A DNA stretch of 41,976 bases, taken from positions 1-41,976 of the forward strand of contig CAYHXN010000004.1 in assembly GCA_964360605.1 (NCBI GenBank). The letters run 5' to 3'. The notes beneath the pieces were generated by a model, which was given only the letters and a program-made list of their open reading frames with translations, had not been told where the DNA came from and ran no database searches. The translations under genes were made by a program, and so were the position numbers. The first letter of the stretch is position 1; each line of letters starts with the position of its first letter. This document shows positions 6,559 to 36,409 of the stretch, piece after piece. Source of the DNA: an uncultured Candidatus Saccharibacteria bacterium (lineage in GTDB: Bacteria > Patescibacteriota > Minisyncoccia > UBA6257 > WO2-44-18).

Positions 6559-7848
6559 TTACTTTCTTATAATGTTAGCCCCTAATTTTTGAAGCCGTTC
6601 GTCAATTTTTTCATATCCCCTGTCTAATTCTTCAATTCCATCCAAAACAGACTTTCCTTCGGCGACCAAAGCGGCAATGACGTGAGCGATACCGGCTCGC
6701 AAATCACGCACCTGGAGATTAGCGCCACATAATGGCGTGGGGCCAAAAACTTGAGCGCTGTGTTGAAATCCGCTTTTTTGGAACCTACAGGCCGAATGAC
6801 CGACGCACTCTTTCAATACTGTAATTCTCGCGCCCATTAAATTCAAGTCGGCGGCGTAGCCAAACCGGTCTTCATAAATCGTTTCATGAATTGTAGAGGT
6901 TCCATCCGCTTGCGTCATTAGTACGGCAAAGGGTTGTTGCCAATCGGTCATAAAACCCGGGTGTGGTTCGGTTTTAATATCAACGGCTTTCAACTGCCCG
7001 CCACTGTAAAACAATATCCCGTTGTCTTGAACTTCGTATTCGCCGCCCGCTCGCCGAAACGCGCTTAAAAAAGTTATGAGATGTTCTTGCTGGGCGTCTT
7101 CCACAAAAATTTTGCCGCCCGAAGCCGCCGCCAGACACGCGAAAGAAACTGCCTCATTGCGGTCTGGCAAAATACTATGAGTGACACCCCGCAAATGGTC
7201 TACACCTTCAATAGTAACGCGGCGAGCGTCAATTTCAATAATCGCTCCCATTTTATTCAGCATTTTGATTAAATCAATAATTTCCGGTTCCACCGCCGCG
7301 TTTTGAATAATTGTTTTGCCTTTTGCCAACACCGCGGCCAAAATAGTATTTTCAGTAGCCCCAACGCTCGGATAACGCAATAACAACTCCGCGCCGCGAA
7401 GACCTTTGGGGGCGGTAGCGATATAACGATCTGGAAAAACTTGAATCTCCGCGCCTAAGGCAGAAAGGGCGGCAACGTGAATATCCACCGGCCGGGGCCC
7501 TATTTTGTCTCCTCCTAAAATTGGCACCTCCGCCTCTCCGGTTCTAGCCAACAAAGGCCCGATGGCTAAAATTGGAATTCTATTTTTACGAGTTAAAGAT
7601 ACGACTTTGGAATTAGTTATTTTGGGAGTATGGAGTTCGGCTATTTGGTTTTCTATAACTACCTTACTTCCTAATTGACGACAAAGTTCCGCGGTGATAT
7701 TTACATCGCCGATGCCGGGAAAGTTTTCTAAAAAACACGGCTCATCAGTTAAAAGAGTGGCTATCATTGCTTTAGTAGCGCCATTTTTGGCGCCAGCCAG
7801 TTTAATGCTTCCTTCAATTTTTTCCCCTCCTTGAATTAGAAATTTCAT
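6559..7848 (-). CDS. murA: UDP-N-acetylglucosamine 1-carboxyvinyltransferase
   Basis: GAKN, GGDKIGPRPVDIH (Asp at the usual Cys position), SVGATEN, HPGFMTDWQ, DLRAG, LDRGYE. Confidence 0.96.
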   Translation of the reverse strand: MKFLIQGGEKIEGSIKLAGAKNGATKAMIATLLTDEPCFLENFPGIGDVNITAELCRQLGSKVVIENQIAELHTPKITNSKVVSLTRKNRIPILAIGPLLARTGEAEVPILGGDKIGPRPVDIHVAALSALGAEIQVFPDRYIATAPKGLRGAELLLRYPSVGATENTILAAVLAKGKTIIQNAAVEPEIIDLIKMLNKMGAIIEIDARRVTIEGVDHLRGVTHSILPDRNEAVSFACLAAASGGKIFVEDAQQEHLITFLSAFRRAGGEYEVQDNGILFYSGGQLKAVDIKTEPHPGFMTDWQQPFAVLMTQADGTSTIHETIYEDRFGYAADLNLMGARITVLKECVGHSACRFQKSGFQHSAQVFGPTPLCGANLQVRDLRAGIAHVIAALVAEGKSVLDGIEELDRGYEKIDERLQKLGANIIRK

Positions 7849-15986: not shown

Positions 15987-16017
15987 AAAAATCCTTCCGA
16001 TGCTCATCGGAAGGATT
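15987..16017 (-). terminator. Intrinsic terminator after the beta-oxidation cluster
   Basis: AATCCTTCCGAT/ATCGGAAGGATT stem with a minus-strand T tract. Confidence 0.75.
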
Positions 16018-16024
16018 AAGTTAT

Positions 16025-18154
16025 TTATAAGTATGCTTTCAAAACTTCTTTCGCAATAAGAAGCAGTTGAACTTCGCTGGTTCCTTCAAAAATGCGGTTT
16101 ACCCGAGAATCTCGGTAAAGACGGGCAATTTTGTATTCTTCAATATATCCGGACCCGCCGTGAATTTGTAAGGACAAATCAATTGCTTCGTCTAAAAGTT
16201 CTGCGGAAACATATTTAACGATTGCCGCTTCTTTTCTGACATCGCGTCCGGTTTCGTAAAGGGCGGCTGTCTGGTAAACAAGCGTCGCAAGTTGGTATCT
16301 TATTGTTTCAATTCTTGCCAGATAGTTTTGTATTCCCTGCTTCATATAAAGCGCTTCTCCAAAAACCTGCCGGTCTTTCGCAAACTTCAATGCTTCATCC
16401 AAAGCGGCCCGAACGGCTCCGATACATCCAGCTCCCAGACTAATTCGCGACTGATTAAAAACATTCATCGCTATTTTAAATCCCTGCCCCGCTTGACCAA
16501 GCAAATTCTCATCTGGCACAAAAATATCGGACATGGCAAATGAACTGGTGCAGGAAGCATGCAGACCTATTTTTTCTTCCGTCACTTTGGTTATTTCAAA
16601 TCCCGACGTCTTGGTATCCACAATAAAGGCGGAAAGGCCGTTGTGGCCTCCGAACTCATCCGTTTTCACAAACACGATGATAAAGTCTGCAACCGCGCCA
16701 TTGCTGATAAATTGCTTGTTCCCGTCAATCCGCCAACCTCCGGCGACTTTTTTAGCCAGAGACTGAATTCCCGCGATGTCCGAACCAATGTTCGGTTCAG
16801 TAGTCGCGTAAGCGCCGATTTTTTCTCCTTTAATGGCCGGAACTAAATACCGCTGTTTTTGGTCTTCATTTCCAAATAGATATACGGTCGCGGCCGCTAG
16901 ACTAACATGCGCCCCGACGAAAACTGATGTTGAGCCGTGGCAGTAGGAAAGCTCTTCCATTAAAATACAGAATCCTGTTTTTCCTAAACCGATTCCTCCG
17001 TATTTTTCCGGAAACGGCACTCCGTAAAACCCCATTTTTGCCATTTCGGAAACTAGTTCCGGCAAAATCCGGCGCTCCTTTTCCATTTGAGCGATTTTGG
17101 GGTTAATTTTTGTATCAGCAAAATCTCTCGCTAGTTCACGTAAAGATTGGCAATCTTCGCTTTCCCAGAACGGTGCCCAAATCTTTTTTTCTTCCTGTTT
17201 TAGGGCCGAACAAGACGGTCCGGTATTTTCGTTGACTAGAACCGGCGCTTGAATCGGACGGTTTTCTTGTCCAATAACGCCGCTGGGAAAATTTGCTTTG
17301 CGCTTGGTTAAAAAAGCCCTCAACCCTTCCTTGGCATCCTCTCCAAAGAGAAGGTCTAAAAAGATGCGTTGCTCCAGAATAAGAGCTTCATCAATGGGAA
17401 ATTTCGCGCCCTCATTGACGGCTTCCACAATCGCATTGACGGAAGAATTCGGTTTACCTTTTGCGAGCTCTGAACACTTCAGAACGTCCTCTTGGGTAAT
17501 TTTACTGAAAGTATTTCTGTCTACATTAACGGTTCTTAAAAAATTTTTGGCGCTGCTGAGAAGTTGGTCTCCAGCTAGCTCATCTACAAGGCCGATATTT
17601 TTGGCTGTTCGGGCGTTAACTTTTTTATCCAATCCGCTGAATAAAATTTCCAATGCCGCTTTGCCGCCAATCAGGCGCGGTAAACGCTGCGTCCCGCCAA
17701 GCCCAGGAATAATTCCTAAACCCACTTCCGGCAAGGCAAAAACCGCGTTTTTGCTGGCAATACGATATTGGCATGCGAGAGCCAGTTCAAACCCGCCGCC
17801 AAAACAAAATCCGTTTACAGCTATCGCGGTTTTCTTTTTACATTTTTCAACAGAAAGAAAAAACGCGTGGAGTCCGCTTAACGCTTCCTCGCCCTTTTTC
17901 CGGTCATCGGAAACAGCAAGCTGGTAAATTTCTTTTACATCAGCCCCTGCGGAAAAAACTATGGAGCCCTTCGCCGTAAATATTATGGATTGCACGGCCG
18001 AATTGTCCCTTAATTGAGAAAACTTCTCCTTCAGTTCCGTAAAAAGGTCAAAAGATAATTCGTTAACGGGAGGCTTATCTAGAGTAAGGATTCCGAATTC
18101 TTCGGAAATTTCCATCTTAACCAATTCCTTCTTCGCAGTCGTTGATTCAGACAT
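16025..18154 (-). CDS. Fused enoyl-CoA hydratase (crotonase) + acyl-CoA dehydrogenase
   Basis: N-terminal FSAGAD, GGGFELALAC, LPEVGLGIIPGLGGTQRL; C-terminal TEPNIGSD, GNKQFISNG, QIHGGSGY, RIFEGTSEVQ. Confidence 0.92.
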   Translation of the reverse strand: MSESTTAKKELVKMEISEEFGILTLDKPPVNELSFDLFTELKEKFSQLRDNSAVQSIIFTAKGSIVFSAGADVKEIYQLAVSDDRKKGEEALSGLHAFFLSVEKCKKKTAIAVNGFCFGGGFELALACQYRIASKNAVFALPEVGLGIIPGLGGTQRLPRLIGGKAALEILFSGLDKKVNARTAKNIGLVDELAGDQLLSSAKNFLRTVNVDRNTFSKITQEDVLKCSELAKGKPNSSVNAIVEAVNEGAKFPIDEALILEQRIFLDLLFGEDAKEGLRAFLTKRKANFPSGVIGQENRPIQAPVLVNENTGPSCSALKQEEKKIWAPFWESEDCQSLRELARDFADTKINPKIAQMEKERRILPELVSEMAKMGFYGVPFPEKYGGIGLGKTGFCILMEELSYCHGSTSVFVGAHVSLAAATVYLFGNEDQKQRYLVPAIKGEKIGAYATTEPNIGSDIAGIQSLAKKVAGGWRIDGNKQFISNGAVADFIIVFVKTDEFGGHNGLSAFIVDTKTSGFEITKVTEEKIGLHASCTSSFAMSDIFVPDENLLGQAGQGFKIAMNVFNQSRISLGAGCIGAVRAALDEALKFAKDRQVFGEALYMKQGIQNYLARIETIRYQLATLVYQTAALYETGRDVRKEAAIVKYVSAELLDEAIDLSLQIHGGSGYIEEYKIARLYRDSRVNRIFEGTSEVQLLLIAKEVLKAYL

Positions 18155-18183
18155 ATATTTCCCCTTTAAAAAAACTGAAAGTA

Positions 18184-18231
18184 TTTTAACAGATTTTTCA
18201 GAAAAATCAAAAGCCCCGCTGTTGGCGGGGT
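18184..18231 (-). promoter_or_regulatory. Terminator followed by promoter with an internal 17-bp palindrome
   Basis: Minus strand CCCCGC/GCGGGG hairpin plus T tract, then TTGATT-16-TAAAAT; palindrome GATTTTTC-A-GAAAAATC at 18192-18208. Confidence 0.55.
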
Positions 18232-18237
18232 TGAAAA

Positions 18238-19413
18238 TTATACCGGGAAACGGCCGTTGGTTTTAGCCATTTTTTCCAAAGCGACGCAGGGATTCTTTAA
18301 ACGCATAAGTATTTTGGAAAGTCCGGTTTCGTTCGCCCAAGCCAGCGGGCCGGATTTTGACATTGGAAACCCGATTCCAAGCAAACAGCCCTTTTCAATG
18401 TCTTCGGCCGAAGCCACGCCTTCTTCTAAGCATATCGCCGCTTCGTTCACTAAAGAGTTCATCTCGTCTTCAAAAACCTCTTTAGCCGAGTCAGCCGAAT
18501 TATCAGGTTCGCCTAGAACCGAAAGATTGTTCTTAATCAAGGATAGAACGGGTTCCGCTTCTTCCGCGTAAGAATAAAATCCGGACCCGCTCTTTTGGCC
18601 GCGCCGGCCTTTTTCCACCAGAAGTTTTAAAATTCGGGACGGTCTGAATTGGTCCGGATAAGCATCGCACAAAATTCCCATCACCTCCAAGCAAACATCC
18701 AAACCCAACGCGTCCATTAAAAGAAATGGTCCGGCCGGCCAGCCAAAGCTAGTCGCTTCTTTGTCAATCAATTCCGGCTTAATAAGTCTTTGCTCTAAAA
18801 TCGCCAGCGCCGGTTTGAGGTATGCCCCCAATAACCGGTTCATTAAGAATCCCGGGCAATCTTTGACCCGAATCGGCGATTTTTGTAAATCCATCTGAAC
18901 AAATTCTTCCGCCTCGGAAACCAGGTTCGGATTGGAAAATTCGGAAGAAATAATTTCCACTAATTGCATTCTAGTTGGCGGATTGAAAAAATGAATTCCC
19001 AAAAGCCGGCTTTTATTTTTTAAGCCCTTAGCGATTTCTTTAATAGGCAGCGAGGAAGTATTGGAAGAAAAGATCGCGTCTTCTGGCAACTGTTGTTCCA
19101 ATTCTGCAAAAATCCTTTGTTTCAAATCCAATTTTTCCGGCACTGCTTCAATTACTAAAAGCTCTGGTTCATCCAATCCGATAAAATCGTGCGTAACCCG
19201 CAAAAGAGATTTTTGCGTATTGGCTTCCTGTTCATCTATTTTGCCCGTAGTCAGAGCTCTATCAATGCCGGCATAAACTTTTTCTTTCGCTTTCTCCGCT
19301 AGCTCTTCATTAAGTTCTTTAATAACTGCCTGACGATTTACTTTAACAACAACTCTGGCAATATCCGCGCCCATTGTTCCGCCGCCAACCACCAAAACTT
19401 TGTTGATAGCCAT
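18238..19413 (-). CDS. 3-hydroxyacyl-CoA dehydrogenase (FadB-like duplicated C-terminal domain)
   Basis: VVGGGTMG, IEAVPE, SNTSS, GIHFFNPP, PGFLMNRLL; second helical repeat EAAICLEEGVAS...GIGFP. Confidence 0.92.
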   Translation of the reverse strand: MAINKVLVVGGGTMGADIARVVVKVNRQAVIKELNEELAEKAKEKVYAGIDRALTTGKIDEQEANTQKSLLRVTHDFIGLDEPELLVIEAVPEKLDLKQRIFAELEQQLPEDAIFSSNTSSLPIKEIAKGLKNKSRLLGIHFFNPPTRMQLVEIISSEFSNPNLVSEAEEFVQMDLQKSPIRVKDCPGFLMNRLLGAYLKPALAILEQRLIKPELIDKEATSFGWPAGPFLLMDALGLDVCLEVMGILCDAYPDQFRPSRILKLLVEKGRRGQKSGSGFYSYAEEAEPVLSLIKNNLSVLGEPDNSADSAKEVFEDEMNSLVNEAAICLEEGVASAEDIEKGCLLGIGFPMSKSGPLAWANETGLSKILMRLKNPCVALEKMAKTNGRFPV

Positions 19414-19440
19414 TTAAATGCCTCTCAAATATCCGGCTAA

Positions 19441-19491
19441 ATCATAAAGCAAAAAACGGGGCTGGTCAACAAAAAATCCCCCGAAGGGGAA
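19441..19491 (-). promoter_or_regulatory. Terminator followed by sigma70 promoter
   Basis: Minus strand TCCCC-TTCG-GGGGA-T6, then TTGACC-17-TATGAT. Confidence 0.6.
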
Positions 19492-19492
19492 A

Positions 19493-19530
19493 TTCATGCT
19501 TCATGCTTCATGCTTCATGCTTCATGCTTC
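19493..19530. repeat. Perfect tandem heptamer (TTCATGC) x5.4 across the thiolase stop codon
   Basis: Units start at 19493, 19500, 19507, 19514, 19521. Confidence 0.95.
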
Positions 19531-20710
19531 TTATTACCATCGCTCCTCCTTGTCCTCCGCCGATACACATAGAAACAACGCCGAGGTTTTTCTTTAAATC
19601 CTTAAGTATATAAATCAATTTCGTGGTCAGGATTGCACCGGTCGCGCCGACCGGATGTCCCATTGCTATTGCGCCGCCCCAAGGATTAATTTTTTCAAGA
19701 CCCACGCTGCCTAACGGACTATCTAGCTTCCTCTGGCAAGCCAAAACTTGGGCGGCGAATGCTTCGTTGATTTCAAAAAAATCAACATCCGTACGCGTGA
19801 TTCTGGCATTAGCTAAAGCGTGCGGAATCGCGTAAGCCGGGCCCATACCCATAAACGCTGGGTCGCACCCCTTAAATTCGTATCCGAGAATTTCCGCCTC
19901 CGGTTTGATTTTATAAAGTTCCGCCATTTCCATTGTCATTACAACCAATGCCGCCGCTCCATCAGAAGTCGGGCAACTGTTACCATAGTGAACCGAACCG
20001 CCTTTTTTGAAAAAATACTTTTTGGACGTCGCGGCAAGAACTTGGGCTTTTAAATTAGGAATAATACCTTCATCTTTAGCAATGATTGTCTCGCCAACCC
20101 GTATCGGAACGATTTGGGACTTAAACTTTCCTTCACGACTCGCACGAAATGCTTTTTGATGGGAACTCGCGGCAAACTCATCCTGGTCTTCACGGCTAAT
20201 TTCTTCTTTTTTAGCAAGGTCTTCTGTTAACTCCCCCATCGATTCTCCAAGAATCGGGTCTCTAAGCCCCTCCATTAAAGCGTCTACCAACTTAAGATCG
20301 CCGTACTTTTGCGCTTCTCGCGATTTTCGCAAAACCCGTGGAATATTAGACATGCTTTCCGTCCCGCCAACTAAAACCACCTTGGCGTCGCCGGCTTTAA
20401 TCATCTGGCAAGCCGAGACAATCGGCTGAAGACCCGTGCCGCAATTTCGCTGAACCGTAAACGCCGGAACTTCTTTAGGAATTCCGATTTTCAGCGCCGC
20501 TACTCGCGCGATATTAGGGGCATCCGATGATTGGGCGCATTGCCCGGCAATAACGTGATCGATCCGATTTAGGTCCGGTAAACCGCTACGCAGTAAGGTT
20601 TCCTTAAAACAAATCGTTAAAAGATCTAAAGCAGTAAAATCCTTGAGCTGTCCTCCCAGCTTTCCCATTGGCGTCCGGCAAGAACCGGCAATGACGATCT
20701 TTTCAGACAT
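19508..20710 (-). CDS. Acetyl-CoA C-acyltransferase (thiolase)
   Basis: VQRNCGTG (catalytic Cys), EINEAFAAQ, GHPVGATG, CIGGGQG. Confidence 0.95.
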   Translation of the reverse strand: MSEKIVIAGSCRTPMGKLGGQLKDFTALDLLTICFKETLLRSGLPDLNRIDHVIAGQCAQSSDAPNIARVAALKIGIPKEVPAFTVQRNCGTGLQPIVSACQMIKAGDAKVVLVGGTESMSNIPRVLRKSREAQKYGDLKLVDALMEGLRDPILGESMGELTEDLAKKEEISREDQDEFAASSHQKAFRASREGKFKSQIVPIRVGETIIAKDEGIIPNLKAQVLAATSKKYFFKKGGSVHYGNSCPTSDGAAALVVMTMEMAELYKIKPEAEILGYEFKGCDPAFMGMGPAYAIPHALANARITRTDVDFFEINEAFAAQVLACQRKLDSPLGSVGLEKINPWGGAIAMGHPVGATGAILTTKLIYILKDLKKNLGVVSMCIGGGQGGAMVIRSMKHEA

Positions 20711-20736
20711 TATTCACTAATCAAAAATCTGCTTAT

Positions 20737-20765
20737 ATCGTAAAACAAAACAATACTTATATCAA
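20737..20765 (-). promoter_or_regulatory. Putative thiolase promoter
   Basis: TTGATA-17-TACGAT, 26 nt upstream of the ATG. Confidence 0.5.
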
Positions 20766-20905
20766 CCATAAAGACTCAAAGGTTTTTAATGCTTAATGCT
20801 TAGTTCTTGGTTCTTAGTTATCGATTATTTTGTTATTTCTTATTTCTTATTTGTTCTTTCTCCTTTACCCCCCCCTTGTCCTTTACCCACTTTGTTCTTT
20901 GTCCT

Positions 20906-20945
20906 TTACCCACTTATTCCAGCCATGGCTGGAATAAGTGGGTAA
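20906..20945. repeat. Perfect 40-bp palindrome with adjacent direct repeats
   Basis: TTACCCACTTATTCCAGCCA|TGGCTGGAATAAGTGGGTAA; TTGTCCTTTACCCACTT is duplicated at 20876 and 20899. Confidence 0.9.
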
Positions 20946-20970
20946 GGAGAATTAAACTAAAAAATAACAG

Positions 20971-21522
20971 CTATGGGAGATGAAAACGCTGTTTAAGATG
21001 AAGTTCATTATCAATACGATTTGCAATAATATAACGCACAAACGGACGCAGGTTGTAGATTTCTATTATAAAATCAATTTCGTCTCTGCATTCGTGAGGA
21101 AAAATAAAAAGGCTTTTTTGAAATTGATAGAAACCTAATCTTTTTAAATGAAACCGAAGGGCTTCTCTTGCCTTTTTAAGCCGGTGAGGAATATCAAAAC
21201 AAACTAAACGCCATTTTTTATCCCAAATCTTTGGAACTGTAATTTTTAAGTCGTCTAATTTATAAACTAAGGTTTTTTGTTTACCCTCTTCATTTAAAAT
21301 GATACTAATAGTGCCGTCTTTCTTTTCTTTATAATCAATAAGTTTGCTTTTATACAAAGCGTTGATAGATTTTTGTAAAGCTTCTCTGTCTATTTTCTCC
21401 CACTCTTTGTGAAATAATCGCCAAGTTCGTCTACGTTGGCCGTAGGAATAAACAAAGCCCAAACTTAATCCTAGCGCTAACAGCAATAAAATTTTCTTTT
21501 GTACCGATCCTATTTTAAGCAT
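20971..21522 (-). CDS. PaaX-like transcriptional regulator (winged helix + Cas2-like ferredoxin-fold domain)
   Basis: WDKKWRLVCFDIP...REALRFHLKRLGFYQFQKSLFIFP; upstream wHTH-like segment SINALYKSKLI...ILNEEG. Confidence 0.8.
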   Translation of the reverse strand: MLKIGSVQKKILLLLALGLSLGFVYSYGQRRRTWRLFHKEWEKIDREALQKSINALYKSKLIDYKEKKDGTISIILNEEGKQKTLVYKLDDLKITVPKIWDKKWRLVCFDIPHRLKKAREALRFHLKRLGFYQFQKSLFIFPHECRDEIDFIIEIYNLRPFVRYIIANRIDNELHLKQRFHLP

Positions 21523-21566
21523 AGTTTTATCCTCACTATAAAATCATTATTACATCGTTATTCCTC

Positions 21567-21596
21567 CTTATTCTAGCCATGGCAAATATAAGTAGG
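21567..21596. promoter_or_regulatory. Degenerate copy of the 40-bp palindrome core, upstream of the PaaX-like gene
   Basis: CTTATTCTAGCCATGGCAAATATAAGTAGG matches CTTATTCCAGCCATGGCTGGAATAAGTGGG at 24 of 30 positions. Confidence 0.7.
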
Positions 21597-21627
21597 TTAA
21601 CGAATAAATTTGAACTTTTGAACTGTA

Positions 21628-21657
21628 GAAAACCACGGCCCTAAGGCCGTGGTTTTC
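21628..21657. terminator. Terminator-like hairpin
   Basis: GAAAACCACGGCC-CTAA-GGCCGTGGTTTTC. Confidence 0.65.
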
Positions 21658-21698
21658 GTTCGAAGTTCGGCACAAAAAAAGACAGCGAAAATGCTGTC

Positions 21699-22046
21699 TT
21701 ATCTTTTTTTATATTTTTCTAAAATCTCTTTCTTTAAATTTTCAAGTTCTTGCTTCGCACTTTCTTGCGTGTTTTCCATAGATCTGTCTGCTTCATGTAA
21801 AATTGTCTCTAAACTCTTAAAAGTTCCGTCTGGACGGCCAAACAAAATCAATTCGCCATAATTTCGGTCTGTAATCATAATATCGGGCAGAGAATCGCCA
21901 TTAACATCTTTTAAGATCGCAGTCCTTTTTTTGGCTTCCGCTTCCTCACGCTCTTTAAGAGTACTAGAAATAACTAATACAGCAATTACTCCGATTATTC
22001 CTACGACTGAGAAAGATGCTACAAAAATTTCCTTAGCTCTCGTCAT
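21699..22046 (-). CDS. Small membrane-anchored protein with DxNGDxxPD Ca-binding-like loop and coiled coil
   Basis: N-terminal TM helix, DVNGDSLPDI, charged C-terminal helix. Start at 22046 or 22082. Confidence 0.6.
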   Translation of the reverse strand: MTRAKEIFVASFSVVGIIGVIAVLVISSTLKEREEAEAKKRTAILKDVNGDSLPDIMITDRNYGELILFGRPDGTFKSLETILHEADRSMENTQESAKQELENLKKEILEKYKKR

Positions 22047-22130
22047 TACGATACCTGTCAAAAAACTGGCTTCATTATACAAAAAAGCCTATTTAATGCA
22101 AGAGGCGAAACTAATAATTTAGGGTGAGTA

Positions 22131-23849
22131 TTACGGCTCTATTATTGCGCGAGTTCTTCGCATTCCAGCCCCGACGGCTTCTTCTTTAAGAATCGTAAAC
22201 TTTCCGACTTCGCCGGTATGAGTAACGTGGGGACCGCCACAAAATTCTTTGGAAAAAGCGTCGTCCAGTGATTTCCCTATGTAATAAACTTTTACTCGCT
22301 CCGGATATTTTTCCTTAAAGAAATATAAAGCGCCGGTTTTTTCCGCTTCGGTTTTGGAGAGCTCCATAAAACCAACCGGCAAATCTTTTTGGATTACTTC
22401 GTTAACTAAGCTTTCAACTTTCCCTAATTCTTCTTTAGTAACTTTTCTTGGAAAATTAAAATCAAACCGAGTGCGCTCCACAGTAATGTCCGAACCGTTT
22501 TGACGCACTTCTGGACCAAGAATCTGACGGAGCGCGGCATGCATTAGATGGGTGGCGGTGTGAAGCCGCGTAACCTTGGCAAGCTCCGAAGGGTCTTTAA
22601 CGGTAACTTCGCCGGTTTTTAGATAAATTCCGTGGCCGCCGAACTTTTTTTCCGCTCCCGCTCGGGAAATTTCTTGATGTTTTGCAAATTCTTTATCAAA
22701 GTCATCGCGCTTTAATTTTTTTGCTTTTGCGCCGCCCATTTCTTTAATAGTTTCAAAAGGCAGGCCGAAACTTTCGTAAAGTTTGAAAGCGGCGATGGCG
22801 TCAATTTCGGAAAGTCGTTCTAATTCTTTTAAGCCCGTTTGCAAGGTTTTGGCGAATCTTTTTTCTTCTTCTTGAAAAATATCCAAAATAATCTTTGAAT
22901 CCAATGCTGGATAAACGCCGTCGTATTTTTCGGTGACTTCGCTTAATAAAGCGGAGATGGGGTGCGGATCATAAGCAATCAACCGACGTATCAGGCGACG
23001 GAGGACATAGCCAGCTTCTTTGTTGGATGGCCGGATACCGTCGGCAATAAGAAAAGCAATGCCTCGGGCATGATCGGCAAAAATCCGCTTTTTGCGCTCA
23101 TCTATTTCCTTTGGTAAAAGAGCAAATAATAGTAAGAACAAATCCGTTTCAAAAATCGTCGAGGTTTTTTGAACGGCCATTGCCAAACGCTCCAATCCCA
23201 TCCCCGTATCCACCCCTTGAATTGGAAGCGGTTCCAAAGACGAATTTGGTTTCTTGTAAAACTGATTAAAAACGATGTTCCAAATTTCAACGCCGTTTAC
23301 ATAAATCTCAGTAGTTGGGCCGCACGGACCTTCACTGCCGGTGGGACCCCAAAAATTGTCCGCGCCTTCGCGGCGGATTTCCACATCGGGAGCGATTTTT
23401 TTCCAAATATCGTAAGATTTTTTGTCAAAAAGTACGCCTTTTCGCCAATCGCCTGCCGAAATTTTTTCTGGATCAAAAACGGTAACATAATCAATTTCTA
23501 ATTTCATTACCTTAGTTATGAATTCATGGGCATATTCAATGGCTTCTTTTTTCCAGTAACCACCAAAGCTGAAATTACCGAGCATTTCAAAAAAAGTGAG
23601 GTGGCTTTCATCTCCAACTTCATCAATATCAGAGGTTCGAAAACATTTCTGGACGGAAGCGATGTTTTGAGCGCCGAAATCTTTTTCAGCGTCCAATGCT
23701 CCGGTGAAATATTTTTTAAACTGCTGCATTCCGGCAGTCGTTAAAAGTACCGAGGGGTCGTCGGGTAAAAGCGAGGAAGAAGGCACGATGGCGTGTCCTT
23801 TACCTTTAAAAAACGAAAGGAAAGATTTACGAATCTCGTCAGCAGACAT
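22131..23849 (-). CDS. alaS: Alanyl-tRNA synthetase (lacks C-Ala domain)
   Basis: AGMQQFK, HLTFFEMLGNFSFG, DTGMGLER, HTATHL, EFCGGPH; 572 aa. Confidence 0.96.
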   Translation of the reverse strand: MSADEIRKSFLSFFKGKGHAIVPSSSLLPDDPSVLLTTAGMQQFKKYFTGALDAEKDFGAQNIASVQKCFRTSDIDEVGDESHLTFFEMLGNFSFGGYWKKEAIEYAHEFITKVMKLEIDYVTVFDPEKISAGDWRKGVLFDKKSYDIWKKIAPDVEIRREGADNFWGPTGSEGPCGPTTEIYVNGVEIWNIVFNQFYKKPNSSLEPLPIQGVDTGMGLERLAMAVQKTSTIFETDLFLLLFALLPKEIDERKKRIFADHARGIAFLIADGIRPSNKEAGYVLRRLIRRLIAYDPHPISALLSEVTEKYDGVYPALDSKIILDIFQEEEKRFAKTLQTGLKELERLSEIDAIAAFKLYESFGLPFETIKEMGGAKAKKLKRDDFDKEFAKHQEISRAGAEKKFGGHGIYLKTGEVTVKDPSELAKVTRLHTATHLMHAALRQILGPEVRQNGSDITVERTRFDFNFPRKVTKEELGKVESLVNEVIQKDLPVGFMELSKTEAEKTGALYFFKEKYPERVKVYYIGKSLDDAFSKEFCGGPHVTHTGEVGKFTILKEEAVGAGMRRTRAIIEP

Positions 23850-29617: not shown

Positions 29618-29627
29618 ACGGGGTTTA
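29604..29627. terminator. Bidirectional terminator/palindrome at convergent stop codons
   Basis: Perfect palindrome TAAACCCCGTTT|AAACGGGGTTTA. Confidence 0.7.
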
Positions 29628-31640
29628 GTTTTCTAAAAATTCCTTCAGTGCTGGCACTAAATCAATAATTTCCTGTGATATTCCATTAAAAGGGATTTTC
29701 TGCGCCTTCACCGGATACACTCCTTCGTATCGGTATCGACGCCATTCGCGAATAATCTTCTGCGGTTTTGGTTTAGGAGAACCCGGAGGCGTCCAGACAT
29801 CCCACCAAGGTCGCCGCTTCGGATAATGGGTAAACATCGTTTCCAAATAGACTGTCTTTTGTTTGCCCCAAATTCGGTAAATCCGTTCCATTACCTGTAC
29901 GATGGAAATTTGATCTAAATCCCGACCGTCATGTAAGTGTACTAATAGCAATTCATTGTTGTTTTCGTGATTAGCGTTGCAAATCGCCACTTTCGGCAAT
30001 CCTAAATTCAAAACATGATTGAGCAAACGCTTCTTAATCCTTTGGTACTCTCGGGACTTAACCATGTAATGATATCGGTTGGCATCATTTTTCTCGTCAT
30101 CCGGGGGATTGTAATAATCTCCGGGGAGAGTGCCCAATCCTACTAAGAAATACTTATTCCTTTCGCAAAACTCCTCCGTAAAAAATTCTTGTAGAAAAGC
30201 GAGGTCGTTATAGGTTCGCCGTACTTCCAACATCTTTTCTAAACCCCTCCCTAATCCGCCAATCATTTCATTTTTTTTCGTCCACTCTTTCCAACATTCC
30301 GGAACATCTAACTCCTGAAAAGAACGCGGTCGTTCGCGAATTTGAGAACGCATTGTTTCATAGGAATCATCCTCTAGATATTTCAGCCACTCCACAACGT
30401 AATTGTCAGGATAGAAAAAGGCTGGCTCACAAACGCCACGACCGGCTTCAGTTTCTGTTACAAAAGCGGAGAATTCCAACCAATTTCTGTTTAAATCATC
30501 GGGGCTCTTCCCGTACTGATCACAAAATAATTTATAAACAATGAATTCATCCCATCGGTCTAAAATTGCCCGATCTTCACAGGTTGTCCAAATTAATCCA
30601 TGCCGTCCGGTATTCCAACGCTTCTTAATATCTTCCCAAAGGGCCAACCCTAAACGATACGGGTTAAGTGATCCGCCACCGCTCTGAACGCCCGCGAAGG
30701 TGTTAGCAAAATGACAAATTTCCGAATCTTCCAAGACTCCCTTGCTGGTCATAATGTCCGCTTCCCAATAAGCGGCCCACCCTTCGTTCATTATTTTAGT
30801 CAAGCCATTACGGTATAAAGAATGCTGTTCTTCTCTTATAATTTCTATAATTTCTTTTTGCCATGGATCCAGTGAAGCGTGTTTGAGACAAAATCCCAAA
30901 ACGTCATAGACTGGTTCGGGGGGGTTAATGAAACCGCGATTAATGTCCTTGCGTCTTTCTTTTTCAAAATCAATAGCTTCCCGTTGGGCATCCAGCCAAT
31001 CTTTGGGATTGACGCACTTATCCATATATTCCGGTAATTTTTCCCTAAACTGTAGCTTAGTAGGATCGTCAGACAACTGTTCCGGTTTTCGGCTATCCAA
31101 TTCATCTAGCTCTCTCGGATTCATAAAATCACATAGAGTCGCGACGGAAAGACAGGCTTCCAGAAAAAGATCTACCTCTTCCTTACCCTCTTTAGTTCTT
31201 AACTCTTCAACTCTTTTAGCATTATCGGCGAATTGGTTATGAAGATCGGTAGGCACCATCCGGCACCAGACATTGTTCTTGAAAAAGTCGGAGTGGCCAT
31301 AAACGTGGCCCATGACCTGTTTCTGAATAACTGAAGGATTTGCGTCCAACAGATAGGCGTAACTTGGATTCGTGGCAATGATCATTTCATAAATAATGTG
31401 CAAACCAAAATTATAAGAGGTTTTAAGCCGCAACGATTCTTGACCAAATAACCAGTGGGAATAACGAACCGGATAACCTGCATAAGCCGCTAGTTCACTC
31501 ATTTCTTCATGATCCACCATTTCAAAACGAATCGGATAAGGATCCAAACCTCTTTTTTTCGCTTCTGCCTCAATCAGATATTTTTCTTTTTTGTAAGGAA
31601 ACTTGGGTCGATTGCCTTGCTCTGGCCGTTTTTCTAACAT
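29625..31640 (-). CDS. spoVR: SpoVR/YcgB family protein
   Basis: YPVRYSHWLFG, IYEMII, HVYGHSDFFKNN, TKIMNEGWA, LNPYRLG. Confidence 0.92.
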   Translation of the reverse strand: MLEKRPEQGNRPKFPYKKEKYLIEAEAKKRGLDPYPIRFEMVDHEEMSELAAYAGYPVRYSHWLFGQESLRLKTSYNFGLHIIYEMIIATNPSYAYLLDANPSVIQKQVMGHVYGHSDFFKNNVWCRMVPTDLHNQFADNAKRVEELRTKEGKEEVDLFLEACLSVATLCDFMNPRELDELDSRKPEQLSDDPTKLQFREKLPEYMDKCVNPKDWLDAQREAIDFEKERRKDINRGFINPPEPVYDVLGFCLKHASLDPWQKEIIEIIREEQHSLYRNGLTKIMNEGWAAYWEADIMTSKGVLEDSEICHFANTFAGVQSGGGSLNPYRLGLALWEDIKKRWNTGRHGLIWTTCEDRAILDRWDEFIVYKLFCDQYGKSPDDLNRNWLEFSAFVTETEAGRGVCEPAFFYPDNYVVEWLKYLEDDSYETMRSQIRERPRSFQELDVPECWKEWTKKNEMIGGLGRGLEKMLEVRRTYNDLAFLQEFFTEEFCERNKYFLVGLGTLPGDYYNPPDDEKNDANRYHYMVKSREYQRIKKRLLNHVLNLGLPKVAICNANHENNNELLLVHLHDGRDLDQISIVQVMERIYRIWGKQKTVYLETMFTHYPKRRPWWDVWTPPGSPKPKPQKIIREWRRYRYEGVYPVKAQKIPFNGISQEIIDLVPALKEFLEN

Positions 31641-31641
31641 C

Positions 31642-32850
31642 TTAGTTACCCTCCGAAAAAACGGCTTGGATGGCTCCCGGAATGTCATCCGCAGTACGAA
31701 GATTAGTCATCCGTACTAATGGATTGTCATGAAAGTAGCTTCTAAGCATCAATCCGAAATTTCCGGCGGGGGAAAATTTCTTCTCAACCGCTTTGGGATT
31801 ACTCATCGCCCAAAGACGAGAAGAGTCAATTTCTAAGTAAGCGTATTGGTTAACTGACGGCAGAAAATCTTTTTCAATGATTTCCATGCATATTTCGTCA
31901 TCGCCTTCTCCCCAATTAAATCCGTCGGAAAAATAAAAAATGTAGATATTCCATTTTTCCGGAGGATATTTCTCCTTGATGAGTTTAAGCGCTTCTTTGT
32001 GACCGCTGGAAGCAACGGTGCCTCCGGCACGGGTAGTGCGGAAAAACTCTTCTCTAGAAACCACGCTCGCTTCTCCGTCGTGAATGATCCATTCTCGCTC
32101 TAAACTACCGTAATACCGAAGAAGTTGAAGTTCCGTAAACTGGCAAAACGAATCAATTACTTTACGGTCTTCTTCCATCACTGATCCGGAAACGTCTTTG
32201 ATATAAATCATAACCGCGTTGTACTGTTTTTTAAGAACCGTTTTTGATTGCCGATAACGCTTATCGTTGCGGATCGGGATCAAACGCGGTTTTTTGGGGT
32301 CAAAGCTTCCTTCAGCAATGGAACGTTTCAGCGCTTCTTTCCAGGTGCGGCGTTTATGAATTAGAGATTCTGGACCAATTCGGCTGACACTAGAATATTT
32401 ATCCGTCTCACTTTTAATGGTTTTGTCACCTTTTGGCTTAATACGCGGCAATTTTAGGATTGCATCAAACAAAATATCGGCAAACTCATCAAGGGGCATT
32501 AAAAGCTCAAACTCTTCTCCGCGTCCGGTCCCGGCAGAACGCTGTCCGTTCTTACCTTGTCCGCCGTTATCTCCGTGAGCGGCTCCCAAGTCGGTTCCCG
32601 GATCGCCTTCTCCTTGGCCGACACCGACGTTTACACCGAATTCATCATCGCCCATATCTTCGTATGGCTTCGGATTGCTAAAGTGTAAAACTGGTATCTC
32701 TATCACGGGAATAGAAATTATTACTCCCCCATCGGGGCCATGAAGCTTAATTCGGGCACGTTGCAAATACTGCATCAGGTCTTTTCGCAAATTACGGTTG
32801 ATAATATCACGGTACTCCTGTTCAGATTTTTTGATGCGTCCTAATCCCAT
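31642..32850 (-). CDS. yeaH: YeaH/YhbH (DUF444) vWA-domain protein
   Basis: GVGQGEG, DVSGS (MIDAS-like), GGTVASS, WNIYIFYFSDG; AAGGAG Shine-Dalgarno before ATG 32850. Confidence 0.9.
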   Translation of the reverse strand: MGLGRIKKSEQEYRDIINRNLRKDLMQYLQRARIKLHGPDGGVIISIPVIEIPVLHFSNPKPYEDMGDDEFGVNVGVGQGEGDPGTDLGAAHGDNGGQGKNGQRSAGTGRGEEFELLMPLDEFADILFDAILKLPRIKPKGDKTIKSETDKYSSVSRIGPESLIHKRRTWKEALKRSIAEGSFDPKKPRLIPIRNDKRYRQSKTVLKKQYNAVMIYIKDVSGSVMEEDRKVIDSFCQFTELQLLRYYGSLEREWIIHDGEASVVSREEFFRTTRAGGTVASSGHKEALKLIKEKYPPEKWNIYIFYFSDGFNWGEGDDEICMEIIEKDFLPSVNQYAYLEIDSSRLWAMSNPKAVEKKFSPAGNFGLMLRSYFHDNPLVRMTNLRTADDIPGAIQAVFSEGN

Positions 32851-32885
32851 ATTAGTCTCCTTAAGAACTACAGCTATTAAACAAT

Positions 32886-32912
32886 AAAAAGCCGCCCTAT
32901 TCAAGGACGGCT
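32886..32912 (-). terminator. Terminator-like hairpin between prkA and yeaH
   Basis: Minus strand AGCCGTCCT...AGGGCGGCT followed by a T tract. Confidence 0.55.
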
Positions 32913-32926
32913 CGTCTTATGTCATT

Positions 32927-35065
32927 TTAACGATGGCGAGGAGATTCTCCGTCGCCTCTAGCAAATACGGAAGCTATTTCTGAAAGAACGTCAGTCGCGC
33001 AACGATCGCAATAACCGAATCTATCTTTCATCCGCTTTTTAATCACTTCAATCTTATCCTGCCCTTCCTTATCTACGACCGAACTGTGCATTGTCGTGAA
33101 ATTAATCGTGTCTTTACGATCGTCAAATAGCTTAAGCTTTAATGCTTGGTAAAGATCGTCATCGGACTTGAAGTCAAAATTTTCTCTTCTTAACGCTTTA
33201 GCGCCCGCGCTTTCCATTAATCGACGCCTAAACTCTACCTTAGAGTTTTCTTCAATTCCGATTTTAGTTTCCACGCCGCGCATCATCCGTTCATCGGAAG
33301 GGACCATATCACCGCGCTCGTTTTTTATTTTGCTTTTCGCCAAAAACGCCTGAACATTGGATATGTATTTATCGAACAACGCCTGGATATCTGATTCGTC
33401 AAACGCGATTGCTTCTTGCACCTCTGCTTTAATGATGCTCTGGAATTCCGCGTGAGCGTCAGATAATTTGCTTGTAAAATCATTAATTTGCTCTGTTTTA
33501 AGACTCCAGTGATTAGCCAACTTTTCTTCCAAAAATTTCTTGACTAAAAACCAGTTTACACAGGGCAATGCGTGACTGGCAGCGTAAGTCTTAGCGTGGC
33601 CGATCATATCTTGAATGTACCGAGGAGAAATCCCGATAAGGCCTTCATCGTTGTGTTCTGCTATTAGGTCATGAATTGCTTCTTCGTTGTATCCTTTTAA
33701 ACGCCTACCGGCATAAAGCTTGGCTTTGTCTATCGCGGAAATTTTGAGGCTAGTCTTTTCTGAAGTGGCTTTAATTCGCGTAAGTACCGCCCACAGGGAA
33801 GCCATTTTAATGGTGTGAGGGCCAATATGAACGCCGCCTTTTTTCCGCCGATAGGTTTTCTCATAAATTTCAGTTTCTTTCTCAAAATTGAGAACGTATG
33901 GTATTTCAACCTCCGACATGCGGTCCTTTAACGCTTCCATATACTCATCTTTCCTCAATTTTTCGTACTCTGGAGTATTGGTAGCCGCGATAATAACTTC
34001 GTCAATATAGCTCTCCGCGAAACGTTTTGGCTTTACCACATGTTCTTGGGTAGCGCCCAAAAAATCGTATAAGAAGGCGTTCTGAAGTTTTAAAGCCTCT
34101 TCTAGTCCTAAAATACCCCTGTTGGCTACTTGAAATTCCCCGCTGAAATCAAAAGCGCGCGGATCCGATTCTCTTCCCAATTCGGCAATTTTTCTATAAT
34201 TAATATCTCCGCTTAATTCAGTGGCATCTTGGTTTTTTTCGTCTTTAGGACGGAAAGAGCCAATACCAATCCGGTCAGCTTCTGAAAAGATCAGCCGGTA
34301 AACCCTGATATGCTTTGTCAACACTTCCCGCCAATTACCATTGTACTTTTTAAGGTATTCGGAATAAATAAAACGGCAAAATGGACAAAGGTCGCCTTCT
34401 ACGTCAATCTGCTCGGTATCCAACCGCTCCCGTTCTCCGTCTTTGGTTTTTATTTTTAATTCGTTCAATTCCTGAACAACTTTCTGACAGACATCCTCCG
34501 GTAAAAGCCTTAGCGGTTCTTCGTGCAACGGACAGCAAGCGTCTTTCTCTCCGGGCGCCAAAGAAATAATCCGGCGATCGTCTTCGGTTTCCGCGACCCA
34601 CTTGAAACTATAAAGCTTTCCCTCTTCCTTTTTCGTATAATCAATCAAGCCTTTTTTCAAAAGCCGCAAAATAGTTGATTTGGAAGAGCCGACTGGACCT
34701 CGCAAAAGCAAGAATCGTCTTTCCTGACCATCTCTAGCCGCAGCCGCGTGAAAAATTCCTACCAAACTCATCAGCGACTTATCTAAACCAAATACCGCGT
34801 CCTTGCCGTTATCAATCGGATCTTCAAAAAATTTGTAGTGTGAGAATTCACGGTTAGCGCGGATGTGTTTTTCTACTCCCCAATACATAATAGAGAAATA
34901 AAGGCGTTGGTGCGCTGAATAAGCGATGGAGGGTTGGGCGTAAACTCGCGATAGATAATCCTCAAAACCCATCTCCTCAAAATATTCTTTTTTGAATACT
35001 TTGGAATTAAATCTATCAAGCCCGTCTTGACCCTTCGTAGGTTCTGAATTCACGGTTCTCTCCAA
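32927..35065 (-). CDS. prkA: PrkA/YeaG AAA+ family protein ('serine protein kinase')
   Basis: Walker A GPVGSSKST, CPLHEEPL, SDPRAFDFSGEFQVANRG, GISPR. Confidence 0.93.
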   Translation of the reverse strand: MERTVNSEPTKGQDGLDRFNSKVFKKEYFEEMGFEDYLSRVYAQPSIAYSAHQRLYFSIMYWGVEKHIRANREFSHYKFFEDPIDNGKDAVFGLDKSLMSLVGIFHAAAARDGQERRFLLLRGPVGSSKSTILRLLKKGLIDYTKKEEGKLYSFKWVAETEDDRRIISLAPGEKDACCPLHEEPLRLLPEDVCQKVVQELNELKIKTKDGERERLDTEQIDVEGDLCPFCRFIYSEYLKKYNGNWREVLTKHIRVYRLIFSEADRIGIGSFRPKDEKNQDATELSGDINYRKIAELGRESDPRAFDFSGEFQVANRGILGLEEALKLQNAFLYDFLGATQEHVVKPKRFAESYIDEVIIAATNTPEYEKLRKDEYMEALKDRMSEVEIPYVLNFEKETEIYEKTYRRKKGGVHIGPHTIKMASLWAVLTRIKATSEKTSLKISAIDKAKLYAGRRLKGYNEEAIHDLIAEHNDEGLIGISPRYIQDMIGHAKTYAASHALPCVNWFLVKKFLEEKLANHWSLKTEQINDFTSKLSDAHAEFQSIIKAEVQEAIAFDESDIQALFDKYISNVQAFLAKSKIKNERGDMVPSDERMMRGVETKIGIEENSKVEFRRRLMESAGAKALRRENFDFKSDDDLYQALKLKLFDDRKDTINFTTMHSSVVDKEGQDKIEVIKKRMKDRFGYCDRCATDVLSEIASVFARGDGESPRHR

Positions 35066-35548: not shown

Positions 35549-36409
35549 TTATTTAATTTTCTCGCTTATCCAAGACATAATTTCCTCGGCGGGTTTTTCC
35601 CAACCCGGTTCCAGTTGAACGCAGTGGGCAAAGCGTGGGAAAATTTTTAATTCGGCACGGTCATGAACATTGTACTTAGTATGGAGGTCTTTCGCGAGAT
35701 AGGTCGGCGTAATACGGTCGTTCTGGCAACCAACCACCAACACCGGGCATTCTATAGCGTTGGCGTTGACGGTGACACAACCTTCAAGAATTTCTTTAGC
35801 GGCTCGGCCGGATTCCTCATTGAATCCCGCGTAGTATTTTTGGTGCGCTTGCGACGGTATGCCATTCATAATGAATCGGCGCGCGTCTTCAAAATTTGGC
35901 TTAAACGCCTTCCAGCGGCGCAAGGAACGAAAATAATATTTGGACTGTGCTATTGCTAAACGCCACGAACAAGGATTAGTCGCCCTAAAAATCTTTATAC
36001 CGTTCGGTGGAGCGGAATTAAGAAGGATTAAGCCTCTAACCGGGAAACTTTCTGCTACCCGCTGGACTATCAATCCGCCCATGCTGTGGCCAAGTAAAAT
36101 CGGGTCCCAAGCGCCGGTAATCTCTACTGCTGAATAATCAATGAGGTTTTTTACGTCATCAATATAGTCCAAAAGAGAAACTTCGCCGAGGTTCTTCGGC
36201 TCCCAAGATCCGCCATGACCCCTAAGATTAGCCGCAATAAATAGATGTCCCCGAGCGGAAAAAAAATTTCCATAATTTTCCATCCGTCGGCTACTACCCC
36301 ACATTCCGTGAACCGCGATAATCGGGGCTTTCGCCTGTCCTTGCGGCATGTATATATCAGTCAATAAACGCCGTTCTTTACTCGTGTAAAATCCGACTTG
36401 CTTCTTCAT
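35549..36409 (-). CDS. Alpha/beta hydrolase (lipase/esterase-like)
   Basis: VHGMWG, NLRGHGGS, GHSMGG nucleophile elbow, NDRIT, AHC. Confidence 0.88.
   Translation of the reverse strand: MKKQVGFYTSKERRLLTDIYMPQGQAKAPIIAVHGMWGSSRRMENYGNFFSARGHLFIAANLRGHGGSWEPKNLGEVSLLDYIDDVKNLIDYSAVEITGAWDPILLGHSMGGLIVQRVAESFPVRGLILLNSAPPNGIKIFRATNPCSWRLAIAQSKYYFRSLRRWKAFKPNFEDARRFIMNGIPSQAHQKYYAGFNEESGRAAKEILEGCVTVNANAIECPVLVVGCQNDRITPTYLAKDLHTKYNVHDRAELKIFPRFAHCVQLEPGWEKPAEEIMSWISEKIK

Follow-up and report, generated by a model that had tools for sequence, protein, structure and literature searches.

In the canonical Fad pathway of beta-oxidation (FadD, FadE, FadB/FadJ, FadA/FadI and EtfAB), the enoyl-CoA hydratase (ECH) is joined to the 3-hydroxyacyl-CoA dehydrogenase (HCDH) as FadB/FadJ, and the enzymes are accompanied by an electron transfer flavoprotein (ETF), a respiratory chain and ATP synthase. 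Here we describe a gene cluster on the minus strand (16025-20710) of a 41,976-nucleotide contig deposited under an uncultured Candidatus Saccharibacteria bacterium (GCA_964360605.1, CAYHXN010000004.1; the whole stretch is referred to as the window), in which three open reading frames (ORFs) encode four beta-oxidation activities with the catalytic residues intact throughout. All five enzyme families of the Fad pathway are shared, likewise with intact catalytic residues, but the hydratase is joined to the acyl-CoA dehydrogenase (ACAD) and the HCDH is free, a Fad-like, FadJ-type ECH-HCDH protein being present in eight relatives. Also unlike the Fad pathway, neither ETF nor ATP synthase was found in any of the 21 genomes of the host's family, no tricarboxylic acid (TCA) cycle enzyme was found, and the COX1 family gave one weak hit. 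What we observe is a family-wide pathway of the candidate phyla radiation (CPR), a variant of the known one in which the Fad enzymes are present and ETF and respiration were not found.

The preliminary description of this DNA had allowed that such a cluster might already be well described in this lineage; we found one earlier CPR case in print, with ETF and respiration. The accessible text on Ca. Parcunitrobacter nitroensis, a single Parcubacteria genome, reports co-located beta-oxidation genes and an acyl-CoA synthetase that diverge from non-CPR enzymes, as here (Castelle et al. 2017, PMC5220378). That text, however, places ETF beside the cluster, adds an FeS oxidoreductase, a respiratory chain and ATP synthase, and mentions no ECH-ACAD fusion, whereas the pathway described here is family-wide and those partners were not found. 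The clostridial butyrate module (thl, hbd, crt, bcd, etfAB) likewise has the four activities in one cluster, and the ACAD domain is 40% identical to Clostridioides difficile Bcd (5ol2), but we found no ETF, pyruvate:ferredoxin oxidoreductase (PFOR), kinase or CoA transferase, and a long-chain ligase accompanies the genes. The cycle would resemble the pathway of peroxisomal-type acyl-CoA oxidases (ACX4 and the engineered Mco; PMC6017585) and Escherichia coli FadE (PMC11495604) in shortening chains without ETF, electrons, as we infer, possibly passing to O2; unlike these oxidases, the enzyme encoded here is an ordinary ACAD by sequence and fold, its Thr/Ser gatekeeper is kept and no catalase was seen. 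Finally, Staphylococcus aureus fadXDEBA is, in the portion of the source available, another beta-oxidation set that had escaped notice, with a rearranged multifunctional enzyme, in a lineage believed to be without the pathway (PMC12369327); there, however, the fusion is HCDH-ECH (as in one relative, G010), the host respires and function was shown by complementation in E. coli.

As far as their accessible text goes, surveys report no beta-oxidation in freshwater CPR groups (PMC9166423) or in Patescibacterium (PMC11809585), PMC10811913 leaves CPR out, and PMC11608272 mentions fadBDN abundance and, in a supplementary row, ACAD (K00249) in 0.5% of 399 CPR genomes. The available text on Harrisonbacteria describes NirK and a type II NADH dehydrogenase (NDH-II), the word 'fatty' not being found in it (PMC5581439), and nothing on CPR beta-oxidation was found in the accessible parts of PMC7906910, PMC7304191, PMC9698310 and PMC5079060. 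Our literature search returned no paper pairing Harrisonbacteria with beta-oxidation, within a full-text search that the eszett spelling escapes, that leaves subscription reviews outside and that would miss genes listed in supplements of CPR surveys; judged by the listing alone, none of the papers returned describes an ECH-ACAD fusion.

The gene cluster and the fused enzyme

The cluster comprises the following features of the window:

19508-20710, minus strand: thiolase (acetyl-CoA C-acyltransferase, BktB-like), 400 aa; C90, H352, C382
18238-19413, minus strand: stand-alone NAD-type HCDH, 391 aa; 3HCDH_N E 4e-49, 3HCDH E 7e-32
16025-18154, minus strand: fused ECH-ACAD, 709 aa; ECH_1 at residues 21-289, three ACAD domains at 332-704
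17288-18124, minus strand: crotonase-fold hydratase domain of the fusion, residues about 11-289; E123, E143
17177-17245, minus strand: predicted disordered linker of the fusion, residues 304-326, pLDDT under 50 (AlphaFold2)
16037-17161, minus strand: ACAD domain of the fusion, residues 332-706; catalytic E690 (IFEG)

The thiolase scores 413 bits against TIGR01930 (cut-off 240.55) and has, besides C90, H352 and C382, the NEAF motif at 315. The HCDH aligns with the entire C-terminal half of FadJ (profile positions 308-680) and contains GxGxxG at 10-15, H141 (in HFFNP) and E153, the latter two invariant in 34 of 34 dehydrogenases. Although the aligned fusions are only 39-56% identical, E123, E143 and E690 are invariant across all 43 of them. 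The AlphaFold2 model of the fusion is confident in both domains (mean pLDDT 91.5; pTM 0.60), and because of the disordered linker and this pTM no fixed packing of the two domains against each other is predicted. The fold of the ACAD domain is nearest to those of MmgC and butyryl-CoA dehydrogenases (rmsd 1.3 A), and none of the best 60 sequence matches in the PDB spans both domains. The preliminary description had listed four adjacent activities with intact motifs; the activities and every named motif hold, but they are distributed over three ORFs, with the hydratase fused to the ACAD. It was also right that neither ETF nor an acyl-CoA ligase lies in the window, where 37 ORFs were scanned.

Host genome and integrity of the locus

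The window is the entire contig C4 of the source genome, G000 (G-numbers denote the compared genomes: a 21-member family including G000, and others from the same order), which consists of 641 kb in 38 contigs, is 88.6% complete and has 0.18% contamination. The cluster is flanked by housekeeping genes (rpsM-rpoA, alaS, rpoD, dnaG and rpoC), and the RpoC encoded on the contig is 81% identical to that of G001, from the same genus, and 70-76% identical to full-length matches in the family, within which it falls on the tree. NCBI assigns the label Ca. Harrisonbacteria to proteins that match those of family members G003 and G015. The host is a Paceibacteria (Patescibacteria/CPR) genome from the family that contains Ca. 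Harrisonbacteria, in line with the earlier assignment to CPR, RpoC grouping with small-genome, CPR-labelled relatives.

Mis-assembly, contamination or a recent, non-functional acquisition is a negligible prospect, largely refuted by several lines of evidence. An orthologous thiolase occupies the identical place next to alaS in G001 (76% identity), G009, G013 and G015, accompanied in G001 by the HCDH (54%) and standing alone at this site in the other three. Read depth is even over the flanks and the cluster: four DNA runs (from two studies, possibly including the source sample) cover 30, 30, 29 and 27 of 30 bins. The left junction (about 15950) is bridged by one read contig (15759-16306) and across the right one (about 20750) pieces of several runs overlap (20343-20865, 20633-20940 and 20911-22317). 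The chimera the preliminary description had considered is rejected. The codon-usage distances of the three genes are ordinary (30th, 45th and 61st percentile of 209 long genes), and the catalytic residues are invariant. In favour of such an artefact or acquisition, no single read contig among those listed spans the whole cluster, and in G009 the dehydrogenase is broken into two ORFs of 188 and 179 aa (L026:1290-2402; a pseudogene or a sequencing error). The locus is neither a chimera nor a recent arrival.

A read entry joining 20017 to 12689 was discarded as absent from G000; it probably combines another organism's rpsM start with a chance A/T-rich match. Five tandem copies of a 7-base unit at about 19493-19527 overlap the last thiolase codons, and letters resembling this repeat in other contigs produce a depth spike and loose ends there.

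Distribution across the family

The preliminary description treated the cluster as the oddity of one genome. Instead, it is a conserved family trait. Of the 21 family genomes, 18 have ACAD (PF00441), 16 thiolase and 17 AMP-binding enzymes, and among 380 genomes drawn from other families of the order 8 have ACAD. These counts describe kin rather than independent genomes and do not amount to a statistical test. The missing activating enzyme of the source genome is encoded elsewhere:

G000:C10:5993-7681 (other contig, unlinked): FadD-like ligase, best match PRK05605, under the curated cut-off

The top NCBIfam match of this ligase is a long-chain-fatty-acid-CoA ligase, again under the cut-off. Of the 18 family genomes with ACAD, 15 have a FadD-like ligase at the tatD-leuS site or next to it, and none of the three without ACAD does; in 14 genomes the ligase lies between the two genes, is 37-44% identical to that of G000 and belongs to one clade (SH-aLRT 97), the contig of G011 stopping before tatD, and G010 has a divergent FadD-like ligase together with its own cluster at this site. 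A second AMP-binding protein of G000 (contig C1) was rejected as an acyl-CoA ligase; it is an adenylation protein encoded beside AcpS in a glycan locus.

In G014, from a genus that the RpoC tree places as sister to the fusion-bearing G011, all three unlinked sites are empty: the thiolase is missing next to alaS, FadD is missing from the tatD-leuS interval, and the third site is without a cluster. This joint loss indicates that the beta-oxidation genes form one functional module.

Interchangeable versions of the pathway

Seven of the 18 ACAD-positive genomes have the ECH-ACAD fusion (type A; that of G019 is divided over two contig ends), and eight have type B, in which a thiolase different from that of type A accompanies a FadJ-like ECH-HCDH and a long ACAD (627-709 aa, one cut at a contig end). 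Two more combine the type-A HCDH and a free ECH with an ACAD of the B clade, and the remaining genome, G010, combines FadD with two thiolases, an HCDH-ECH protein and a long ACAD. The type-B layout is typical of long-chain degradation. Types A and B share one site, near alr and a conserved gene for a 136-aa protein, and are interleaved on the RpoC tree, even inside one genus. Their ACADs are of separate origin (a single clade is rejected, p-AU 2e-5), and a clade of the family's type-A ACADs that excludes Yanofskybacteria is rejected as well (p-AU 0.002); the trees are all quick trees, and the A and B groups were named after the tree was seen. Retention in 18 of 21 genomes, the swapping of non-orthologous versions at one site and the combined loss of three unlinked sites show that the pathway is under selection in the family.

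With respect to a donor lineage, the nearest named non-CPR thiolases come from KSB1 and Chloroflexi (about 50% identity) and the nearest named bacterial dehydrogenases from Micromonospora (36-39%). A dehydrogenase fragment labelled Nanoarchaeota (P0425; 47% identical, on a 1.2-kb contig) could reflect transfer to DPANN archaea or a binning error.

The fusion beyond the family

At least 61 other full-length fusions, at 39-53% identity, are present among the best 120 matches; eight are labelled Patescibacteria (Harrisonbacteria, Yanofskybacteria, Parcubacteria, Paceibacterota), one just 'bacterium' and none non-CPR. A search of 1.84 billion cluster representatives gave 12 matches over both domains within the best 150, the sole named cluster among those looked up being Parcubacteria. 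A contig scan for clusters listed at least 79 loci, one of them CPR, and among the matches listed ECH and ACAD never share an ORF in the 78 non-CPR genome loci. The clade of type-A ACADs (43 rows, SH-aLRT 98) consists of CPR-labelled or unlabelled sequences only, and a Yanofskybacteria contig (L044) has the same three genes in the same order. The ECH-ACAD fusion is thus seen here only in Paceibacteria-labelled or unlabelled sequences.

In a second ECH-ACAD fusion of 870-887 aa (P0066, P0067, P0245 and P0249; one labelled Yanofskybacteria), the ACAD is long and belongs to another clade. Unrelated clusters occur in other families of the order, such as that of G040 (L041), with ETF and a succinyl-CoA-ligase-like protein; G024 (L042-L043) has three ACADs with 2-hydroxyglutaryl-CoA dehydratase subunits, and ACAD genes lie beside ORFs recognised by eye as isocitrate-lyase-like in G094 (L197) and methylmalonyl-CoA-mutase-like in G076 (L185).

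Partners of the pathway

ETF (PF01012) was detected in 0 of 21 family genomes and in 10 of 14 positive controls. The ETF of G040 was recovered in the same kind of search and, used as a tblastn query, found nothing in G000; among the eight ACAD-positive genomes outside the family, only G040 yielded ETF, the Yanofskybacteria genome of L044 yielding none. ATP synthase was likewise found in 0 of 21 family genomes, against 14 of 14 controls, and the weak COX1-family hit comes from one of the 21. With neither ETF nor ATP synthase found, beta-oxidation cannot serve its textbook purpose here: respiratory ATP is impossible in the absence of ATP synthase, and the cycle would yield none.

G000 was further examined by Pfam sweeps of 591 ORFs outside the window at E 1e-12 or 1e-9, with 150 unannotated ORFs repeated at 1e-4 and with most of the ribosomal operon, gap-containing ORFs and some short ORFs omitted. 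These sweeps found no Fab or TCA gene and did find an H+-pyrophosphatase (H+-PPase), a patatin, an NDH-II-like protein, NirK (above cut-off), superoxide dismutase, a GlcD-like fragment, a ferredoxin and two GNATs; NirK and the NDH-II-like protein are encoded at L128:7440-8663 and L162:4303-5517, the latter gene beside that for phosphoglycerate kinase. Among the partners named in the preliminary description (etfAB, fadD, CoA transferases and plsXYC), a FadD-like ligase was found, on another contig. The others were not: besides ETF, the PlsC-type acyltransferase was found in 0 of 21 family genomes and PlsY in 0 of 5, no CoA transferase appeared in the G000 sweeps, and PlsX was not seen in them, the relatives not being searched for it.

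These negatives bear on a pathway running in reverse, as a butyryl-CoA electron sink or an acyl-carrier-protein-independent route to acyl chains, both of which the preliminary description had offered. The gene set and order do resemble thl-hbd-crt-bcd, and the top solved match of the ACAD domain is C. difficile Bcd. However, no ETF was found, PFOR was found in 0 of 21 genomes, and the partial hits to the E1 component of pyruvate dehydrogenase (22-38 bits in 19 of 21, that of G000 falling in a transketolase gene) are, for these reasons, read as transketolase-like cross-hits, which leaves no acetyl-CoA source. The acetate/butyrate kinase family that would supply the terminal kinase was found in 0 of 5 genomes; there is also the deficit of CoA transferase, PlsC and PlsY, and an activating ligase travels with the genes. 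Neither version was borne out, and we consider reversal highly unlikely.

The electron exit from the acyl-CoA dehydrogenase

A rather unlikely alternative is that the same catabolic cycle operates with the ACAD reoxidised by an unrecognised carrier: a non-homologous substitute for ETF, a quinone from host lipids, a chain ending in NirK or the ETF of the host. The ACADs retain the gatekeeper Thr/Ser and the Glu of an E-x-K-x-G motif, which we take to be an ETF contact residue. A GlcD-like flavoprotein, in general usually also an ETF client, is present in G000, G003, G010 and G014, and G000 has NirK and an NDH-II-like gene, as in the accessible description of Harrisonbacteria (PMC5581439). Against this, the COX1 family is limited to its one weak hit and no candidate carrier tracks the module. 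The ferredoxin of G000 was rejected as the acceptor, being found in 0 of 5 relatives (with no positive control among them), as was, for a partner role, the 136-aa gene that adjoins the cluster in relatives, which is kept in all three pathway-negative genomes; the NDH-II-like, GlcD-like and H+-PPase genes also persist in genomes without the cluster. The search for co-varying genes took in 619 kb of the roughly 815 kb of G014 and no whole pathway-positive relative, so that a partner gene may have escaped it.

We favour, tentatively and at somewhat less than even confidence, the reading that the three genes and the unlinked FadD-like ligase make up a complete beta-oxidation cycle that likely converts host fatty acids to acetyl-CoA and NADH, with the ACAD likely passing its electrons to O2, since no ETF gene was found in the family. 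Phospholipases (patatin and an alpha/beta lysophospholipase-like hydrolase) would free fatty acids from host lipids; FadD would form acyl-CoA, and the pyrophosphate released could supply the H+-PPase; the fusion would desaturate and then hydrate the chain; HCDH would yield NADH, which the NDH-II-like enzyme (with NirK where present) might reoxidise; and the thiolase would free acetyl-CoA. Cells with no recognisable route from pyruvate to acetyl-CoA would thereby rid themselves of free fatty acids and obtain acetyl-CoA and NADH. The direction is most likely catabolic, because the genes are accompanied by a long-chain ligase, which activates fatty acids, and no source of acetyl-CoA or electrons for the reverse reaction, nor any use for new chains, was found. 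Degradation of host-derived acyl chains, one of the options in the preliminary description, is the best-supported reading, because the FadD-like ligase accompanies the cluster.

Judged by the type of this ligase and by the type-B replacements, the substrate is probably of medium or long chain length. The enzymes might instead act on acyl-CoAs that are short or branched, derived for instance from amino acids or the host, rather than on membrane fatty acids: in both sequence and fold the ACAD domain is most similar to Bcd, CarC, MmgC and short-chain acyl-CoA dehydrogenase, and BktB gives the top score of the thiolase among named subfamilies. We regard this as improbable, considering that the co-occurring and co-lost ligase is of the long-chain type, that the conserved site of eight relatives encodes a FadJ-like enzyme together with a long ACAD, and that no 2-oxoacid dehydrogenase or ferredoxin oxidoreductase was found that would make such acyl-CoAs.

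In a very unlikely variant, the cell would gain ATP through substrate-level phosphorylation, with acetyl-CoA and pyrophosphate as the substrates of an AMP-forming ligase working backwards, for which Syntrophus aciditrophicus provides a precedent. ATP sources are scarce in the family, which lacks detectable ATP synthase (0/21) and enolase (0/5); H+-PPase is present in G000, AcsA is above cut-off in G001, a near-cut-off acetate-CoA ligase occurs in G005, and similar proteins are found in G001 and G002. Such acetate-CoA-ligase-like genes are, however, limited to 3 of 21 genomes, and both acetate kinase and the succinyl-CoA-ligase/ADP-forming domain were found in 0 of 5. The genes themselves (L312:6011-8095 in G001; L313:6399-8207 in G005, in a glycan locus; L228; L230) lie beside a gene that by eye is ketopantoate-reductase-like.

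With regard to O2 as the acceptor, the accessible text of PMC6017585 treats it as a slow side reaction of ACADs, with the cycle incomplete without an acceptor. That of PMC11495604 reports higher H2O2 in vivo as an effect of E. coli FadE, an enzyme for which no ETF partner has been identified. The latter source also indicates that ACADs leak more to O2 when enoyl-CoA is absent, which suggests a possible role for the fused hydratase. Type-B ACADs have Asn (14 of 15) at the position that maps to the oxidase-promoting E377N via primer sequences printed in the available part of PMC6017585, a residue that may be inherited from non-CPR relatives. As for the fatty acids, CPR size fractions are rich in lysolipids thought to derive from other bacteria, according to the accessible portion of PMC7242380. 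A bolder form of the favoured reading, which we hold to be doubtful, is a peroxisome-like beta-oxidation in which the native ACAD would act as an ETF-free oxidase, the fused hydratase would strip away its enoyl-CoA product, and the cycle would destroy fatty acids of host phospholipids during the building of a lysolipid-rich membrane, as the sole source of acetyl-CoA.

Several observations weigh against the oxygen-linked catabolic cycle that we favour. The nearest solved relatives of the type-A ACAD are short-chain, ETF-dependent enzymes. By sequence it has no clear oxidase signature: all 43 fusion-clade ACADs keep Thr/Ser as the flavin gatekeeper, a position that is Gly in the engineered oxidase, and the Phe that 42 of the 43 have in place of W315 also occurs in 20 of 52 other ACADs. 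No window protein gave a hit to the ACOX domain. The product departs only once the flavin is reoxidised (PMC6017585, in the part available), contrary to the role suggested for the fused hydratase. The G000 sweeps found no catalase or peroxiredoxin, only superoxide dismutase, thioredoxin reductase and glutaredoxin, and no thioesterase, CoA transferase or CoA-synthesis gene that would recycle or make CoA. Sinks for acetyl-CoA are few: the mevalonate pathway was rejected as one (HMG-CoA synthase in 0 of 5 genomes), as was a GlmU-type acetyltransferase (hexapeptide acetyltransferases in 1 of 5), and G000 has two GNATs. Patatin is not module-specific, occurring in 18 of 21 genomes, including G008 and G014, often on the FadD contig. 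Finally, the FadD-like ligase was not found in G002, G003 and G016, nor thiolase in G003 or G005; the family genomes are incomplete metagenome-assembled genomes (66-100%), in which negatives mean 'not found', not 'absent'.

Other features and neighbouring genes

Each gene of the cluster is followed by a terminator-like hairpin, identified by consensus match only:

19474-19495, minus strand: hairpin 3' of the thiolase gene
18214-18230, minus strand: hairpin 3' of the dehydrogenase gene
15990-16017, minus strand: hairpin 3' of the fusion gene

Promoter-like sites upstream of each gene were dismissed as being at chance level (10 found versus 9.9 expected). A search for RNA data sets containing the sequence listed none, a negative with no bearing on expression. 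A PaaX-like gene upstream of the thiolase (20971-21522, minus strand; PaaX central Cas2-like domain) was rejected as a regulator, none adjoining the cluster in the loci of 20 relatives; G000 has a second PaaX-like copy at L163:2054-2623.

Possible lipid-processing genes in the window are an alpha/beta hydrolase (Hydrolase_4, lysophospholipase-like; 35549-36409, minus strand) and a PAP2 phosphatase (37079-37600, minus strand); elsewhere G000 encodes the patatin (L146:17070-18035), a ceramidase-like protein (L148:1716-3032) and an Mpo1-like protein (2-hydroxy fatty acid dioxygenase-like; L161:5253-5822). Lysophospholipase transfer is covered in the accessible part of PMC12455944. Genes for a PrkA AAA kinase, DUF444 and a SpoVR-like protein are consecutive at 29625-35065 (minus strand). 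The window also has a MurA-type gene (EPSP synthase domain; 6559-7848, minus strand), and two NeuB genes lie elsewhere; all need phosphoenolpyruvate, which would have to come from outside because enolase was found in 0 of 5 genomes. At L144:7470-12213, G000 has a class-III aminotransferase, a saccharopine-dehydrogenase-like protein, an aldehyde dehydrogenase in two ORFs and a ferredoxin, possibly for polyamine or amino-acid catabolism.

Implications

A natural ETF-free ACAD or a hydratase-dehydrogenase fusion would be of interest to enzymologists, and since the four proteins are of soluble type and expressible in E. coli fad mutants, the use of host fatty acids by CPR bacteria is testable without culture. 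How CPR bacteria acquire and handle lipids is an open question, and surveys, in their available text, state that these organisms lack beta-oxidation (PMC9166423, PMC11809585). The family analysed here suggests that ultra-small, host-dependent groundwater bacteria likely burn the fatty acids of their hosts by an unrecognised, possibly oxygen-dependent route.

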